In this document: positions 1,230 to 15,319 of the stretch, one piece after another
How the letters are laid out: every line of letters begins with the position of its first letter
Position numbering within the stretch: the stretch's first letter is position 1
Source of the DNA: a virus
DNA: 33,597 nt
Direction: 5' to 3' (one strand)
IMG/VR virus record: IMGVR_UViG_3300006752_000008
Notes under the pieces: model-generated
Database searches by the model: none
What the model saw: only the letters and a program-made list of their open reading frames with translations
What the model was told of the DNA's origin: nothing
Made by a program: the position numbers and the translations under genes

Positions 1230-2805
1230 CAGTTACTACTCCATCAGGTTGCATTTGACCCTGCGCTTGAGCATACTGTTGAGCCATCTGTACTAGCTGT
1301 TTTCGTTCATTACCATCACGAACAAGCTGGTCAGGTACTCCAAATTTCTTCGCCAAGTATGCCGCAGTTTCTTCTGAGTCAATGAGAATGTTCATTATCT
1401 CAGGACCGAATCTCCCTTGAACAAGTTCTAGGAAACGAGCCACGGCAGTTATGTCTTGGTTAGCTTGCGCTTGAGCAAGTGGCGATATAGACTTAACCTT
1501 AACTTCCCTGCCGTTTACAGTTGGGATGTCAATCCTTCCCTGCTTCTTCAATATATAAACTACACGTTGCAACACAGGCTGTACTAGCTCTGCTTGCAAT
1601 CTTCCAAAGGCAGAGCCAATACGTCTTGATAAATCAGACATACGTTCTGCAACTTCAGTAGCCGATGCTGGTGTTTTATTTGGATCGCCTAGCATATCGT
1701 TATACAACGCACGTTTAATATTCAAACGCATATCGTTAAGAACTAAGCTTGCCACATCAAAAGAACCAGCACTTGCTACTGGCTGTAACCCTAGAGAATT
1801 AGGGGCTTTTGGAATGATTGTTCCCGGAACGAGATTGATTGTATCGGGATTAATAACGCCATCATCATCCATTTGATAGATGCCAGAGATTGCCATCTGT
1901 GCATTTTCTAGGATGAGTTCGATTGTTAGATTGGTGGTTTTAATTGCACTAAGCGCATTAATAAGTGGACCACGCCCATAAATTTCACCAGCACACTTAG
2001 ACCAACGGAAACAAACAAATGGGTTACTACCTACGCCGTTGAATGTTTTCTCGTCTATAACTTCCTTGCTAGTCATTTCGATAGCAAAGAACATATGCGC
2101 TTCTTGATTTATCTTTGAGTAATCACGACAGACTATCTCAAGAACTTTTGTTTTTTCTTCTGGGTATGTATTGATACGCCTTTGAACATTCTCACTAAAC
2201 TTTGCTTTAGGGAACATGATAGGTAAGTCACTGTTGCGACAAGGACGTTCCCTAAACACATGGTCAATACGGTCATCAGGACCAGTATCCAAAACAACAT
2301 GAGGCAAAGGGATTGCGCTAAACATGACAGGGTTGATTGAATCGCCTTCAATGACATTCAAGACTCCTGTGCCAACAGCTAAATCCATAAAGGATTCATG
2401 TACTTCTTGAGAGAAGTTAGAGTTTTGAATTACTTCAAAAACGTAATCCGTGACTTCATCAAGCGCATTGTTGACTTCATCTTTTTCATTAGCTTCAACT
2501 TCAGACCCAGCAGTGAAATCTGCCCACCTAGCAAAGTTCGGGACAAGACCCGATTGAAGTCTTGAAGCAAACTCTTGAACGCCAACGACCGCAGTTTCAT
2601 CAAATATTTTTTCATCCCTGCGTTGCCCAATTCTTTCTGCATAAAAAGATTCTCGCATTGGTAAAGCATACTCATAGCACTCCTCGAACAAAGGAACAAA
2701 GTTTTCGCGTTGCGTCTTTGCTCGTTCATACTTACGAAGATACACTTCCGCAGTCTTGGTGTTACCAGCCGCGCTAGGAGAATACTCAGGGGTTTGAGAA
2801 ATCAT
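1207..2805 (-). CDS. Portal (head-to-tail connector) protein, podovirus/T7 gp8-like
   Basis: 532 aa, located downstream of TerL and upstream of the scaffold. N-terminal RENFVPLFEECYEYALP and GVQEFASRLQSGLVP are typical of podovirus connector proteins (recollection). The start overlaps the upstream stop (TAATG). Confidence 0.88.
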   Translation of the reverse strand: MISQTPEYSPSAAGNTKTAEVYLRKYERAKTQRENFVPLFEECYEYALPMRESFYAERIGQRRDEKIFDETAVVGVQEFASRLQSGLVPNFARWADFTAGSEVEANEKDEVNNALDEVTDYVFEVIQNSNFSQEVHESFMDLAVGTGVLNVIEGDSINPVMFSAIPLPHVVLDTGPDDRIDHVFRERPCRNSDLPIMFPKAKFSENVQRRINTYPEEKTKVLEIVCRDYSKINQEAHMFFAIEMTSKEVIDEKTFNGVGSNPFVCFRWSKCAGEIYGRGPLINALSAIKTTNLTIELILENAQMAISGIYQMDDDGVINPDTINLVPGTIIPKAPNSLGLQPVASAGSFDVASLVLNDMRLNIKRALYNDMLGDPNKTPASATEVAERMSDLSRRIGSAFGRLQAELVQPVLQRVVYILKKQGRIDIPTVNGREVKVKSISPLAQAQANQDITAVARFLELVQGRFGPEIMNILIDSEETAAYLAKKFGVPDQLVRDGNERKQLVQMAQQYAQAQGQMQPDGVVTGGEQEQG

Positions 2806-3026
2806 TATAGAAACTCGTTATAATAACCCATTCCGCCGCTTGAACCACTCAGTAATGACCTACGACCACTACCGCCTCTAGCTCTACGAACACCTTTTTC
2901 AAGTGTCTCTTGCTTACGCTCAGAACGCATAGCTTGATTTTCATCACGCTGTTGCTTTTGAGCCGCTTGCACAGATGGATCAGGCGTTGGTGGCGGTGGG
3001 GCTGATGGTCTTGAACCTACACACAT
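2805..3026 (-). CDS. Small Pro/Gly/Arg-rich protein beginning MCVG, unknown function
   Basis: 73-aa ORF with SD aaaggagtgtgtaATG. Lies between TerL and portal. Shares an N-terminal MCxG, a low-complexity region and an R-x-S-L-[IL] motif with the 6146..6496 product. Confidence 0.7.
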   Translation of the reverse strand: MCVGSRPSAPPPPTPDPSVQAAQKQQRDENQAMRSERKQETLEKGVRRARGGSGRRSLLSGSSGGMGYYNEFL

Positions 3027-5575: not shown

Positions 5576-5808
5576 GTGTAGTACCCCAACAAATTTTTAG
5601 GTTTAGAATCCTTTGGCGGTTTCTTCATCTTAACCGCTTCTGAATATTTTTTAAAAGCCTTTAGTGCGGTTTTCCGTTCACTGTCACGCTTCTTCTTGCG
5701 TGTGTTGAACTCTTTGCGTGTCTTATTAAAAGATTGGTTGATTAGACTTTTAACAACAGGAACAACAAACTCACTGCTGTTCATAATTTCATCGACAGCT
5801 TTCATCAC
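5572..5808 (-). CDS. Hypothetical basic protein (78 aa)
   Basis: Track ORF with 4-nt overlaps on both sides. The middle and C-terminal parts are K/R-rich. Confidence 0.65.
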   Translation of the reverse strand: MMKAVDEIMNSSEFVVPVVKSLINQSFNKTRKEFNTRKKKRDSERKTALKAFKKYSEAVKMKKPPKDSKPKNLLGYYT

Positions 5809-6149
5809 TTCTTACCTTTCTTCTTAGAAGATGCATACCTCTTTAGCAAAGAACGACCCCTACGCACAGCAGATGCCTTATCACCACCATGCCCCCATGC
5901 CTCTAGCGAGAGCTTCAAACGAGTCTTGCGACCCTTCTCGTCTTTCAACGCCCCCTTCGCTGAACCCATGCGAACTAGGAAACTGCCCTTGCGTCTCTTT
6001 TGCTCTGGAGTCGAGGCCGCTTTCTTTACTGGAGCTTTGAGGTTTCCCTTCTTCCCAGACTTGGTGCGATAAGATGCGCGACCCTTTGCGTTCAATCCGC
6101 CTTTTGGATTCTTCCCTGCCTTGCGTGTCCATGCTGGTGATTTACTCAT
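5805..6149 (-). CDS. Very basic small protein (114 aa; 37 K+R by my count)
   Basis: Track ORF. PAWTRKAGKNPKGGLNAKGRASYR...LSLEAWGHGG resembles a conserved marine-phage small-protein family (recollection, unverified). Confidence 0.7.
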   Translation of the reverse strand: MSKSPAWTRKAGKNPKGGLNAKGRASYRTKSGKKGNLKAPVKKAASTPEQKRRKGSFLVRMGSAKGALKDEKGRKTRLKLSLEAWGHGGDKASAVRRGRSLLKRYASSKKKGKK

Positions 6150-6496
6150 ATTGAAAACTCGCCAATGCCATCGTTGTTTGTATCAGGCGCACTGCTCTTG
6201 CCGCTAGTCTGACTATCAAAAGCGTCTTGCATAGCATCTCTTATTCCTCCAATGCCTTGATCCCCTGCCTTTCCTTTGCCACCCTTTGAGCCAAAGTCTG
6301 GGCTGTGGTCGTCACCACCACCATTGTCTATTTGGATTGTTGGTCTGCGAATAAGAGATGCGCGGATACGAGCGTTCTTCGCTTTATTCTTTTCTGAGAG
6401 TTCATACTTAGACACAACGATTTCATTCGAGGTGTCTTGAAGCCATCTTGGTTTTGCTGGTGGCCGATAACCACCGCCGCCTCCGCCCATGCACAT
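6146..6496 (-). CDS. Gly-rich small protein beginning MCMGGGGGG, unknown function
   Basis: 116-aa track ORF with SD aagtggagaaccgtaATG. Looks paralogous to the 2805..3026 product. Confidence 0.7.
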   Translation of the reverse strand: MCMGGGGGGYRPPAKPRWLQDTSNEIVVSKYELSEKNKAKNARIRASLIRRPTIQIDNGGGDDHSPDFGSKGGKGKAGDQGIGGIRDAMQDAFDSQTSGKSSAPDTNNDGIGEFSI

Positions 6497-6610
6497 TACG
6501 GTTCTCCACTTAAAAAATTATTCACCACTAACAACAAAAGCTTTTTACGACTATCGCCATTATGAACCATCCCTTGCCAGTCGCCACCAACTTTTTTACA
6601 CCCCCTCGGT

Positions 6611-6985
6611 CTAGGTCAGGTCTATGGAAACCTTAATTTCCCCTGCATGGAGATGCATATGTTTATCTGGGGCTTTGAATCCTGCCCTGTCAAGGATGTC
6701 TTTACTCGCTTCAAGCTGAACGTACTCGCTTTTGGCACCACGACTCAGTTGCATAAGCCTTGCCGCCGCACTCGTAGCATTGATACCGAGACTATCAGCC
6801 ACCGCTTGCATCATGTACTGTTGCACATGAGGAAGCCGCAATGCCTTACTGGCTGTGACTCTGCCCGATTCGCCTTTGGCGTATCCAGCAGAGTGTGAAG
6901 CATCTTTGATGCTACAGCCAGTTGCTACGAGTGTATCAACCAACGAGCGTTGCTTTAGCGTGAGTTTAGTTGAAATAGAAGTCAT
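6611..6985 (-). CDS. terS: Terminase small subunit (HTH-type)
   Basis: LTLKQRSLVDTLVATGCSIKDASHSAGYAKGESGRVTASKALRLPHVQQYM matches the terminase small-subunit HTH pattern. I prefer ATG 6985 (SD gaGGGGGGGtt) over ATG 7000. Confidence 0.8.
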   Translation of the reverse strand: MTSISTKLTLKQRSLVDTLVATGCSIKDASHSAGYAKGESGRVTASKALRLPHVQQYMMQAVADSLGINATSAAARLMQLSRGAKSEYVQLEASKDILDRAGFKAPDKHMHLHAGEIKVSIDLT

Positions 6986-7007
6986 AACCCCCCCTCTCAT
7001 CCCCCCC

Positions 7008-7044
7008 TTTATGGATGGTGCTTGATGCGTTTGTCAACGCACAA
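7008..7044 (-). promoter_or_regulatory. Candidate late promoter carrying the TTGTGCGTTG motif (TTGACA-N18-CATAAA) just upstream of terS
   Basis: The - strand reads ATTTTGTGCGTTGACAaacgcatcaagcaccatcCATAAAggggggg. The -35 hexamer is a perfect consensus match. Confidence 0.4.
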
Positions 7045-7047
7045 AAT

Positions 7048-7075
7048 GGTCGATAGGCGCAAGCCTAGGTCGACC
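7048..7075 (-). terminator. Hairpin with flanking A/T runs at the distal end of the left repeat arm (leader terminator candidate)
   Basis: GGTCGA-TAGGC-gcaa-GCCTA-(gg)-TCGACC, which is 11 bp with a 2-nt bulge. On the - strand it is followed by ATTTTGTG. Confidence 0.5.
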
Positions 7076-7094
7076 CATTTTGAATCGCGCTTGA

Positions 7095-7529
7095 CTAAGC
7101 ATACAAGCGAATTGACGGACAGAGTACTGCAAGACTGAGCAACCCTGACGCTGACTAACTTGGCTGTTGACAGTCTTCCAAGTCCTGCCGCCTTGTTGTA
7201 AGCCAAGTAAGCGCGTCATGGGAAGCGGTAGTTCGCGCAGTACGACCGCCATACGAGGAGGATGTAGCATCGTCTTGGCGAGTTGCACATCCACAACTGC
7301 CTTAGTCTTCGTCCAGCGTATAAGGCAACTCTGCCATGACGTAGCACATCTGCCGTACCATCCGTTGGATGCAAGGCGATGTTGGTGTTCCGCATAGCAC
7401 TCTGAACACTGATGCCCTACGGTAAGGTTATGTTCGCCTCATAAAATCATGTAAGCATACTAAAAGGACGTCCATTCCGAATGAGATAAGTTGGCTAATG
7501 CAAGGTGGAGTTACATTTTTCTAAGACAT
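7095..7529 (-). pseudogene. Decayed inverted copy of the 7846..8262 early gene
   Basis: The reverse complement aligns colinearly with 7846..8262 at roughly 65-75% identity by eye. It begins SD-ATG TCT TAG (stop at codon 3), has further in-frame stops, and has a frameshift before the residual ORF 7034..7294. That residual ORF still reads VDVQLAK..RM...L.EL, compared with VDVNLAK..HRM..ELVEL in the intact gene. Confidence 0.7.
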
Positions 7530-7604
7530 GTTAGCTGTCTCCTACTAGAACATCAGGCCGAACAGTTCGATCTCACTGTGCTAAACCGACCACAGTACTT
7601 GCCG

Positions 7605-7612
7605 ATAATATA
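7605..7612 (-). promoter_or_regulatory. Conserved -10-like block TATATTAT in the left arm (mirror of 7769..7776)
   Basis: The - strand GGTATATTATCGGCAAGT matches the + strand AAGTATATTATCTGCAAGT in the right arm. This block is better conserved than the surrounding arms. Confidence 0.3.
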
Positions 7613-7647
7613 CCAGCCTCCGTCTGGTAGTGTCCCAGCCAGATAGT

Positions 7648-7672
7648 GCATCGCATAGCGATGCGCTTTTTG
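7648..7672 (+). terminator. Perfect 7-bp hairpin plus T-run in the inter-arm control region
   Basis: GCATCGC-ata-GCGATGC followed by GCTTTTTG. It is nested inside a second stem, CCCAGCC (7634..7640) with GGCTGGG (7676..7682). Confidence 0.4.
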
Positions 7673-7677
7673 ATTGG

Positions 7678-7693
7678 CTGGGCTTGCGCCCAG
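7678..7693. repeat. Perfect palindrome CTGGGC-ttgc-GCCCAG at the symmetry axis of the large inverted duplication
   Basis: Read directly. The midpoint between the pseudo-ATG (7529) and the real ATG (7846) is about 7688. Confidence 0.8.
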
Positions 7694-7768
7694 ATGGGGC
7701 TGGGGCTTTGTTAATTGAGGTCAGATGGGCTTCGCTCCACTGACCATGTGCCACGTTCGTGAGGCAAG

Positions 7769-7776
7769 TATATTAT
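7769..7776 (+). promoter_or_regulatory. Candidate early promoter -10 (TATATTAT), about 70 nt upstream of the first early gene
   Basis: GTGCCA-N17-TATTAT is possible. The block is conserved in both repeat arms. Confidence 0.3.
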
Positions 7777-7845
7777 CTGCAAGTTCGGTGGTTCGGAAGC
7801 ACACTGGACGAACGGTTCGTCCAGATAACCTAGAAGGAGACAGAC

Positions 7846-8262
7846 ATGTCTAAGAAAAACGTAAATCCAGCATTAGCACAACTTATCTCATTCAAAATGG
7901 ACGTTGTATGCATACATGAAGGCGATCATAACGCTTACCTTCGTGCATCAGTATCCAGAGATGCTTGCTTCACATCCAACAACGGCATCCAATGGAAGCT
8001 ACAGCAGATGAGCGACCTCAAGGCAGAGATAGCCACGCTGGTCGAAGGCGAAGGCCAAGAAGTTGTGGATGTGAATCTCGCCAAGAAGATTGACATCTTC
8101 CATCGCATGGAGGACGAACTGGTTGAACTACAGCTACGCCATGACGCTGACTTGGCTGTATACAACAAGGTGACAGGGGAAGACTGGAAGTCAACACCCA
8201 AGTCAGTCCGCGCCAAGAACGCACAGGCAGTACTGAGTGCCGCCAAAGCGATTGTAGGCTAA
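7846..8262 (+). CDS. First early protein (138 aa), unknown function
   Basis: Strong SD ctagaaggagacagacATG and an intact ORF, followed by an intrinsic terminator. GC content looks higher than in the rest of the genome. Confidence 0.85.
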   Translation: MSKKNVNPALAQLISFKMDVVCIHEGDHNAYLRASVSRDACFTSNNGIQWKLQQMSDLKAEIATLVEGEGQEVVDVNLAKKIDIFHRMEDELVELQLRHDADLAVYNKVTGEDWKSTPKSVRAKNAQAVLSAAKAIVG

Positions 8263-8270
8263 CTCAAGCA

Positions 8271-8305
8271 AGGGCGATTCAGAAATGGGTCGCCCTTTTC
8301 TTTTG
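8271..8305 (+). terminator. Rho-independent terminator after the first early gene
   Basis: AGGGCGA-ttcagaaatggg-TCGCCCT followed by TTTCTTTTG. Confidence 0.7.
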
Positions 8306-8341
8306 CCTATAGTTGTGCGTCAACGTATGGGGAGATGAGAT

Positions 8342-8500
8342 ATGTTTATCACGCTGACACAGGAGACAGTCCTGATACATACGTCACGCGGAAACAGGAG
8401 TCAGTTCTGCATACATCTTTTCCATAACAACAGGGTGCTAGGGGCTTTGGTCTTTGCCGACAATATCACTTTCATATTGCGTCAGAGTTCAGGTCACTAG
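8342..8500 (+). CDS. Possible small ORF (52 aa), not in the track
   Basis: Hand translation gives MFITLTQETVLIHTSRGNRSQFCIHLFHNNRVLGALVFADNITFILRQSSGH. SD ggggagatgagatATG. No recognisable family. Confidence 0.35.
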   Translation: MFITLTQETVLIHTSRGNRSQFCIHLFHNNRVLGALVFADNITFILRQSSGH

Positions 8501-8937: not shown

Positions 8938-9011
8938 AGGGGTAAAGTGTTACGGTAGCACATCAGGTTCCAACCCTGAGAGAGTGGGTTCAATTCCTAC
9001 TACCCCTGCCA
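8938..9011 (+). tRNA. trnW: tRNA-Trp (anticodon CCA), 3' CCA encoded
   Basis: Folded by hand. Acceptor AGGGGTA/TACCCCT (7 bp). D stem GTGT/GCAC with a GG-containing loop. Anticodon stem TCAGG/CCTGA with loop TTCCAAC. 4-nt variable loop. T stem GTGGG/CCTAC with loop TTCAATT. Discriminator G followed by CCA. Position 8 is A, which is unusual. Confidence 0.85.
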
Positions 9012-15291: not shown

Positions 15292-15319
15292 AAGGGGCGA
15301 GTCGATGGGCTTGCCCCTT
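15292..15319 (+). terminator. Terminator hairpin at the convergence of the early and late arms
   Basis: AAGGGGCGAG-tcgatggg-CTTGCCCCTT (10 bp including one G-T pair), followed by ATTCTTT on the + strand. Confidence 0.7.

Follow-up and report, generated by a model that had tools for sequence, protein, structure and literature searches.

Between the early and late genes of a podovirus-like genome, a gene and its decayed copy face each other

We analysed a window of 33,597 nucleotides (nt), the virus record IMGVR_UViG_3300006752_000008 of IMG/VR, and describe here the region in which its leftward late genes and rightward early genes diverge. Between terS, the small terminase gene that opens the late operon, and an intact first early gene encoding a protein of 138 amino acids (aa) lies a non-coding inverted copy of that early gene, which we refer to as the mirror; gene and mirror form the right and left arms of a half-kilobase imperfect palindrome whose arms have evolved in concert across a family of related phages. 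All coordinates are positions in the window, whose locus we call W; related loci and lineages are designated by L and a number.

The right arm contains an intact open reading frame (ORF) for the 138-aa protein (7846..8262, plus strand), followed by an intrinsic terminator with a 12-bp stem and a T-run that a terminator scan called at 8270..8305 on the same strand; an equivalent GC hairpin was found in 21 of 21 lineages with a readable flank, with a T-run in nearly all of them. A consensus scan placed a sigma70-like early promoter, P_R (GTGCCA-17-TATTAT), at 7748..7776 (plus strand). Directly upstream of the Shine-Dalgarno (SD) sequence, the 5′ untranslated region (5′UTR) contains a stem-loop, CTGGACGAAC-G-GTTCGTCCAG (7804..7824, plus strand), and in most lineages this position is occupied by a stem of differing, co-varying sequence, frequently built on a core resembling GGGATGGTCC; the stem-loop probably has a function as an RNA element, for example as a stabiliser, a processing site or an operator. 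The protein is predicted to be all-helical (AlphaFold2 pLDDT 89.9; helices at residues 8-21, 27-66, 72-110 and 126-137) and belongs to a family of 131 unnamed proteins without Pfam domains. Searches for it by fold and against PDB sequences, Pfam, PHROG and PADLOC returned no significant match, and neither the locus DNA nor the protein matched annotated phages in blastn and tblastn searches.

The left arm (7037..7620, minus strand) mirrors the 5′UTR, the gene, the terminator and the TTGTGCGT sequence beyond it, and contains no intact ORF. It retains an SD sequence and a pseudo-start ATG (7529..7527, minus strand) that reads ATG-TCT-TAG, the stop at codon 3 occupying 7523..7521, and further stops and frameshifts follow. 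Mismatches between mirror and gene in W are uniform over the codon positions (23/24/14), and across the 24 lineages defined below the mirrors hold 74 in-frame stops against 68.5±7.6 in simulation, a neutral frequency that rules out selection for silencing stops. The ATG-NNN-TAG start, with AAG changed to TAG at codon 3, is common to four lineages (W, L005, L037 and L036), in one of which the protein is only ~46% identical to that of W; it is either an old lesion that has outlived conversion or a recurrent lesion that gives a start-stop mini-ORF.

The arms align colinearly in inverted orientation

Smith-Waterman comparison of the reverse complement of 6990..7700 with 7670..8360 produced a single colinear alignment, in which the reverse complement of 7053..7620 is matched to 7761..8310 over 441 matches, 82 mismatches and 72 gap columns. 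Arm identity is therefore 84% excluding gaps and 74% including them, and the score of 402 compares with 20.8±2.3 (maximum 33) for 200 shuffles. A repeat finder independently recovered a colinear chain of inverted segments (I1-I8, I10, I11 and I15). A preliminary description of this DNA, made from the sequence alone, had proposed an imperfect inverted duplication of ~65-75% identity at 7028-8330 with an intact gene and terminator on the right and, on the left, a decayed copy that keeps the SD and ATG and has TAG at codon 3. The alignment and the ORFs bear this out, and the example matches given at the time also hold: the SD/ATG block, the GTATATTATC block, and a block near 7268..7297 and 8062..8091, which the repeat finder places at 7269..7298 and 8061..8090 with 90% identity. 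Both arms then run into TTGTGCGT, as had been noted (minus strand 7044..7037; plus strand 8313..8320). What had been called a perfect palindrome on the symmetry axis is in fact a hairpin with a 6-bp stem and a 4-nt centre (CTGGGC-TTGC-GCCCAG, 7678..7693), offset by ~5 bp from the midpoint of the arms; a small GC-rich hairpin of different sequence is found at the same place on the axis in most lineages of the W clade.

The symmetry extends further than the preliminary description stated. The right flank at 8313..8344 (plus strand, TTGTGCGTCAACGTATGGGGAGATGAGATATG) resembles a collapsed remnant of the promoter, G-run and ATG block of terS (compare TTGTGCGTTGACA...GGGGGGGATGAGAGGGGGGGTTATG on the minus strand), so that the symmetric span reaches ~6985..8344 and the original inverted duplication appears to have extended to the terS start codon; similar right-flank remnants are kept in L005 and L037. 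The arms are separated by a central spacer (7621..7760) that differs by 3.6% from L010 and by 12% from L005, a slower change than at fourfold-degenerate (4-fold) sites; among the loci scanned its length is mostly 50-175 bp, with a minimum of 24 bp and greater lengths in some distant lineages. Each inner edge carries a motif specific to its side: CCAGACGGA on the left (7619..7627, minus strand), which W, L005, L020 and L037 have in their left arms, and CCACGTTCG(A/T)GA in its place in right arms (7751..7762 in W). These motifs are conserved across lineages whose arms differ otherwise, and may be distinct signals of the two divergent units, either for a regulator or in the -35 region.

An assembly artefact is ruled out, as the same structure occurs in 65 long-arm loci from different studies; moreover, the longest exact run common to both arms is 15 nt, and cross-talk during assembly is thus no explanation.

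The mirror is present throughout a family of related phages

Protein and locus searches of public viral and metagenome contig collections yielded 173 related loci, several with a marine or TARA label. A stretch of 820-860 bp without a called gene separates terS from the early gene in all close and mid-distance relatives, and every one of these relatives has an inverted arm, never with an intact ORF. Long arms of 420-600 bp with 76-89% identity were found at 65 of the 139 loci with enough upstream sequence, where inverted orientation scored 200-455 and a direct-orientation control 19-48; grouped at <88% gene-arm identity, these 65 loci represent 24 lineages. A profile search of six-frame ORFs found a second intact copy at none of the 173 loci, and relatives with two intact divergent copies, for which the preliminary description had proposed to look, were therefore not recovered.

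The nearest cultured relative is Pelagibacter phage EXVC031P Hodr, whose portal protein is 64% identical. At 2505..2972 of the Hodr genome (OQ414635), the 5′ third of the phage's first early gene is duplicated in inverted orientation; this gene is not detectably homologous to the 138-aa gene (hhalign probability 9%). The Hodr mirror is 205 bp long, lies between the gene and terS, and comprises the promoter region, SD, ATG and first ~49 codons (score 136 versus 19±2.5); the SD and ATG are kept and are followed by a mini-ORF of 7 codons. A textbook terS promoter, TTGACA-17-TATACT, lies inside this mirror arm at the place corresponding to the terS promoter of W described below, in a segment homologous to coding sequence of Hodr's first early gene. 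The locus tags of record OQ414635 read 'EXVC032PBaldr', and the record name is EXVC031P Hodr.

Genome ends, terminal inverted repeats and a linear telomere were considered as sources of the symmetry and ruled out. Relative to the locus, full-length contigs of 31-34 kb have no constant breakpoint, which shows that the axis does not mark a genome end; in addition, the record of Hodr is circular and TerS/TerL packaging genes are present. Pelagiphages of the HTVC023P type, at ~59 kb, are a different group.

Gene and mirror evolve in concert

The two arms of one genome resemble each other (identity 0.84 in W, 0.87 in L005, 0.76 in L003 and 0.71 in L009), while the genes of different genomes are 0.66-0.84 identical and no alignment is possible between the left arms of divergent genomes. 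Quartet sites grouping the arms by genome, by side or crosswise numbered 47/52/2, 111/16/1 and 93/4/3 in individual comparisons and 150/330/8 over five independent pairs. At the finest scale, close relatives in 12 groups differ at 195 polymorphic columns of the gene, and at 53 of these the left arm shows the same bases in the same genomes, against 2.5 (maximum 8) in a column-shift control. The mirrored sites are interspersed with persisting left-specific differences, lying in perfect runs with a median of 8 nt and a range of 1-21 nt; as a measure of tract length these values (median 8, maximum 21 nt) are upper bounds, and they fit template switching, heteroduplex repair and selection alike. 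Polarisation with outgroups identified 8 mirror sites that appear to have changed to the gene state and 4 gene sites that appear to have changed to the mirror state. Homogenisation showed no dependence on distance, identity staying level at 0.80-0.84 from one end of the arm to the other. No block of the region evolves faster than the left arm, yet this arm diverges at about half the rate of 4-fold sites (0.048 versus 0.106, and 0.193 versus 0.345).

Template switching between imperfect inverted repeats is known to homogenise the arms and to mimic compensatory changes (PMC8794818), and PMC8604942 and PMC7202029 likewise treat it as such a homogenising mechanism. Taken as statements about structure and evolution, an ancient inverted duplication and a dead copy kept in step with the gene, probably by short templated transfers, are well supported.

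Residual mismatches are strongly biased between strands

The differences that persist between the arms are far from symmetric. We classified each of the 2138 mismatches in the 24 lineages by the left-arm sense base followed by the gene base: GA outnumbers its opposite AG by 506 to 37, TC outnumbers CT by 364 to 53, TA outnumbers AT by 275 to 76, GT outnumbers TG by 257 to 87, AC outnumbers CA by 200 to 91, and GC outnumbers CG by 161 to 31. When the arms are paired on the minus strand the mismatches are of the most stable kinds (G.T 870, G.A 457, T.T 275 and G.G 161), and on the plus strand of the least stable. Minus-strand pairing is favoured by the mismatches in 24 of 24 lineages, and the minus-strand fold of the whole unit is likewise the more stable one in every lineage, by 136 kcal/mol on average. 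Having destabilising mismatches and the weaker duplex in all 24 lineages, the plus strand does not fit a mirror transcript that acts in trans as antisense RNA on the early gene.

Polarised left-arm changes run in the same direction as the mismatch bias, at ~3:1, and unmirrored changes of the gene likewise add G/T to the minus strand. In the left arm, insertions that have no partner contain much T and little G (A.20, C.23, G.17, T.40). Drift towards genomic composition is ruled out as the source of the gain of G, the G fraction at 4-fold sites being ~0.10-0.12. Synonymous gene sites rich in A/C in all lineages, which would have made a minus-strand bias show in composition, are ruled out as well, since such enrichment was found in 7 of 18 lineages; polarised gene substitutions do lean that way. 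A single order of preference, G>T>A>C, accounts for the mismatch counts no less well than pairing would, and many of the mismatches are transversions (59 of 82 in W, 93 of 123 in L009). The persisting mismatches suggest some constraint on minus-strand pairing of the arms.

A probable separate promoter precedes terS

The leftward counterpart of P_R is P_L (7607..7636, minus strand), a sigma70-like site with an extended TG (GGGACA-18-TATATT). The consensus scan returned 8 sites where 5.3±2.4 were expected, and P_L is thus weak on its own. The -10 block GTATATTAT is common to both arms in W, in agreement with the earlier statement that a -10-like block had been retained, but it is not conserved in the next lineage, L005.

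The first gene of the leftward late operon, terS (6611..6985, minus strand), was identified by Pfam Terminase_2 (E=2e-8) and by PHROG terS families. Its true start is probably, judging from the sequences, the ATG at 6985, which gives 124 aa: relatives start at the equivalent ATG (123-124 aa), and the 129-aa ORF from 7000 begins within a G-run motif. That motif is part of a block at 6988..7037 (minus strand) composed of TTGACA (7037..7032), an 18-nt spacer, CATAAA (7013..7008) and GGGGGGG-ATGAGA-GGGGGGG (7007..6988). The TTGAC(A) box and the G-runs (G5-7-N5-9-G5-7) are found in 15 of 15 lineages with terS in the locus, with a variable, weak -10 in most, and the block differs by 0% from L010 and 2% from L005, where 4-fold sites differ by 11% and 35%. 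The consensus scan missed it because the last base of its -10 is A. Given this conserved block between the mirror hairpin and terS, the late operon probably has its own promoter downstream of the mirror 'leader', though some transcripts from P_L may also run on into terS. The pair of G-runs formally fits a G-quadruplex motif (G3N1G3N6G3N1G3); alternatively, the runs could be a slippage, pause or terminase-recognition element.

The mirror arm ends at a distal hairpin, t_L (~7043..7081, minus strand), followed by ATTTTGTG; its extended stem reaches 7099 and takes in the terS -35 box, and the RNA of 68 nt ending at this box folds with a free energy (dG) of -30 kcal/mol. A distal hairpin is present in most lineages: L005 shares the t_L fold of W with a compensatory T-A to G-C change, and others have hairpins of different sequence, many with a weak T-run or none. 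The arm alignment indicates that t_L is built differently from the gene's own terminator. Both arms had been described as ending in a hairpin and a T-run; the left hairpin is real, but its T-run (ATTTTGTG) is weak and the terminator scan did not call it. The scan did call a terminator-like hairpin within the spacer, with a 10-bp stem and TTTTT (7645..7672, plus strand), which points from the mirror arm to the early promoter. This hairpin is conserved in L005 with a changed loop, a hairpin with a T-run is also found in L110, and there is no minus-strand counterpart. It is oriented so as to stop rightward transcription leaving the mirror arm before the early promoter, which implies rightward transcription there. 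No promoter for rightward transcription through the mirror arm was identified, nor was a conserved leftward promoter found to the right of the 138-aa gene.

Genome context

The window is a podovirus-like genome of ~33.6 kb. Leftward from terS run the late genes, for TerL, a T7-type portal, the major capsid protein, tail tubular proteins, internal virion proteins and an endolysin; the rightward early genes encode DUF932, helix-turn-helix (HTH) regulators, an O-like initiator, a RecE-like exonuclease, an Erf-like annealase and a single-stranded DNA-binding protein (SSB). The ORFs scanned include no phage RNA polymerase, and no Q-like antiterminator was found among the 28 ORFs compared with PHROGs and 8 with Pfam, a set that covers all but a few small ORFs.

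A GC-rich island at 5750..8450 (~47-53% GC, against ~36-44% in neighbouring windows) extends over terS, the entire inverted unit and, upstream of terS, the genes for small basic proteins. The G fraction at 4-fold sites of terS is 0.24, against 0.06-0.22 (pooled 0.10) in other late genes. An AT-rich stretch downstream of the 138-aa gene contains a tRNA-Trp (CCA) gene (8938..9011, plus strand), and no known RNA family besides this tRNA was found. At the convergent junction of the last early (SSB-like) and last late (endolysin) genes a strong hairpin (15292..15319) was called as a plus-strand terminator; its minus-strand side has no clear T-run, and it may also stop late transcripts.

What the mirror may do

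The explanation we favour, and hold with moderate confidence, is a quasi-palindromic early/late control region that is homogenised by short templated conversion and in which the mirror serves as an untranslated twin unit or spacer. The locus lies at the point of early/late divergence of a ~33.6-kb podovirus that would depend on host RNA polymerase. Its right arm is a self-contained early cassette with a promoter-like site, a structured 5′UTR, the 138-aa gene and a terminator, and its left arm an ancient inverted duplicate of that cassette, which appears once to have reached the terS start, has lost its coding capacity and now fills the stretch from the axis to a probable terS promoter that is separate and conserved. 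Very short templated corrections would keep passing changes between the arms, so that the mirror would not drift away from the gene. They would probably arise by replication template switching or short-patch conversion, in which the RecE-like exonuclease, Erf-like annealase and SSB of the phage could plausibly assist, a role we infer. Transfer would be mostly from gene to mirror and occasionally in reverse, and new mutations in the mirror would hold divergence at 11-25%. The mirror would supply, facing left, a twin of the early promoter region, together with an untranslated transcript that would be at most ~0.5 kb long and would end at the hairpin abutting the terS promoter. From its sequence, the arm is most likely such an untranslated twin transcription unit and spacer ending at the hairpin next to a dedicated terS promoter, and for the late operon it may serve as a buffer, or as an attenuated unit placed upstream, rather than as the sole promoter and leader.

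This interpretation must be made cautiously, and several observations count against it. Both P_L and the twin unit are predictions from sequence, and P_L is a consensus match whose -10 is not conserved in L005. In the mirror the SD is often weakened and the 5′UTR stem often broken; mirror RNA alone does not exceed the expected degree of structure (z=-2.4; the gene's mRNA reaches -4.3), and an independently structured non-coding RNA was set aside as weakly supported. The tracts, bounded at a median of 8 nt, would be unusually short products of conversion, the same mirroring pattern could come from compensatory selection in very large populations, and conversion alone does not explain the strand-asymmetric spectrum. 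Finally, distant lineages have only 70-230 bp of mirror left, around the ribosome-binding site (RBS) and N-terminus, so much of the arm appears dispensable, which suits an eroding relic as well as a functional unit.

Among the alternatives, it is unlikely, to our mind, that the minus-strand complementarity of gene and mirror is itself what is selected, as an imperfect duplex of ~0.5 kb rich in G.U/G.T in which the mirrored substitutions are compensatory. The duplex could take the form of a hairpin in a leftward RNA running antisense through the gene, of a decoy for an antisense RNA against the gene's mRNA, or of a fold-back of minus-strand single-stranded DNA during replication or end resection. 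All six mismatch asymmetries give stable mismatches on the minus strand and unstable ones on the plus strand, and the minus-strand fold is favoured without exception; the bias appears only where a partner base exists, and unpaired insertions resemble neutral sites in being rich in T and poor in G; in the mirror, changes of G>A and T>C are depleted despite an AT-rich genome; mirroring is resolved to single sites; and the gene's unmirrored changes also put G/T on the minus strand. Yet the order G>T>A>C on that strand fits without any pairing, transversions are abundant, and there is no conserved leftward promoter to the right of the gene. Selection per base pair on a duplex of 0.5 kb should also be weak, long hairpins are normally harmful in bacteria (SbcCD), and distant lineages and Hodr have short arms only.

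We regard as improbable the role that the preliminary description had proposed for the left arm, that of a late leader in which transcription from a constitutive P_L would run through ~480 untranslated nt to a terminator before terS, under antitermination as at the lambda PR'-qut-tR' region. Part of that description stands, in that a decayed mirror with a promoter-like site, SD, ATG and a hairpin does precede terS; P_L has an extended -10, the SD/ATG with its immediate stop is kept in W, L005, L037 and L036, the distal hairpin is preserved between W and L005 through compensatory change, and Hodr has the identical order of mirror promoter, mini-ORF, small hairpin and terS. The lambda-like model is nonetheless weakened by a separate, nearly invariant TTGAC(A)/G-run block downstream of the hairpin, by hairpins that are non-canonical and in many lineages lack a usable T-run, and by the failure to detect a Q-like antiterminator or other late regulator in the ORFs scanned. 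The -10 of P_L is not conserved in L005, arm length ranges from 70 to 600 bp across the family, and with 70-230 bp of mirror in distant lineages a leader of ~480 nt is no requirement of the family. No better are the prospects, in our estimate, of a mirror that is a functionless relic, refreshed by conversion faster than it is deleted and leaving the terS promoter and the spacer as the only functional parts. Neutral stop frequency, codon-uniform mismatches, a decaying SD and 5′UTR stem, unremarkable RNA structure, variable arm length with near-complete loss in distant lineages, and a left arm that outpaces the rest of the region while staying under the 4-fold rate are all consistent with a relic. 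Against it, ~0.5 kb of useless DNA would have been kept in compact genomes of 31-34 kb whose proteins have diverged to ~40-50% identity; a mirror is also found in Hodr with a different gene; arm identity falls in a narrow band (76-89%) with no intact or near-identical copy in any lineage; the inner arm edges hold conserved motifs specific to their side; and the strand-biased spectrum opposes the neutral composition of the genome.

Relation to known systems and implications

The ingredients of a quasi-palindromic control region homogenised by short templated conversion are known, namely quasipalindromes, concerted evolution of inverted repeats and divergent promoters. Template switching at quasipalindromes is reportedly captured by the Ripley model and by work of the Lovett laboratory in E. 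coli. The quasipalindromes described by Mönttinen & Löytynoja (2022, PMC8794818) share with this locus imperfect inverted arms, very short patches that reappear as their complement and a compensatory look. Their stems are a few to tens of bp long, whereas the arms here measure 0.5-0.6 kb and consist of a gene cassette and a pseudogene, with divergence held steady at 11-25% over deep phylogenetic time and strand-biased residual mismatches. Plastid inverted repeats and sex-chromosome palindromes also undergo concerted evolution by gene conversion, and there too an arm resembles its partner in the same genome more than its orthologue in another; both arms are functional and almost identical in those cases, with long tracts, whereas here one arm is dead, identity is at most ~89% and tracts are bounded at <=21 nt.

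Late control in lambda relies on PR'-qut-tR' and the Q antiterminator, and the locus resembles it in that the operon for packaging and structural proteins is preceded by a promoter-like site, untranslated sequence and a hairpin; it differs in that no Q homologue was found, a conserved promoter follows the hairpin, this hairpin often lacks the form of a canonical terminator, and the leader is a pseudogene copy. In silent-cassette conversion (pilE/pilS, vlsE/vls) a degenerate silent copy likewise exchanges short segments with an expressed gene. Here, by comparison, there is one cassette, the flow is mostly from gene to pseudogene (with 4 candidate reverse transfers), and we found no evidence of diversifying selection at the locus. 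A diversity-generating retroelement (DGR) also has a coding repeat and a nearby non-coding one (VR and TR) with directional differences at many positions, whereas the repeats here are inverted and span a whole cassette. A DGR was ruled out: there is no reverse transcriptase, positions with A in the gene make up only 872 of 2138 mismatches (41%), and all 12 mismatch classes occur. The ORFs of at least 250 aa, none of which is a reverse transcriptase, are structural, packaging, DUF932 or exonuclease genes, belong to an unnamed PHROG family or have no match.

We found no prior description of this layout in the literature searched. What is new is the combination, a half-kilobase quasi-palindrome of gene and pseudogene at the early/late switch, present family-wide and with a strand-biased spectrum; conservation across the family, concerted evolution of the arms and strand-asymmetric mismatches all go beyond the preliminary description. 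The locus allows concerted evolution between a gene and an inverted pseudogene to be followed at single-nucleotide resolution in many independent natural lineages, and, in phages equipped with Exo/Erf, it offers a natural setting in which templated micro-conversion or template switching could be measured. It also provides a caution, in that apparent compensatory covariation across hundreds of bp may arise without RNA structure.

Compact phage genomes are expected to drop dead DNA fast, and here a half-kilobase pseudogene mirror persists beside the packaging operon across a large, abundant podovirus family known from metagenomes, as well as in a cultured SAR11 phage; the cultured Hodr/HTCC1062 pair makes the locus experimentally tractable. 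Should minus-strand pairing be selected, the pseudogene would be a structural nucleic-acid element obliged to track a fast-evolving early gene, with a role in the early-to-late switch, in replication or in the processing of DNA ends beside the packaging genes. If the strand bias does reflect selection, these phages would carry a new kind of long-duplex regulatory or replicative element at their early/late switch.

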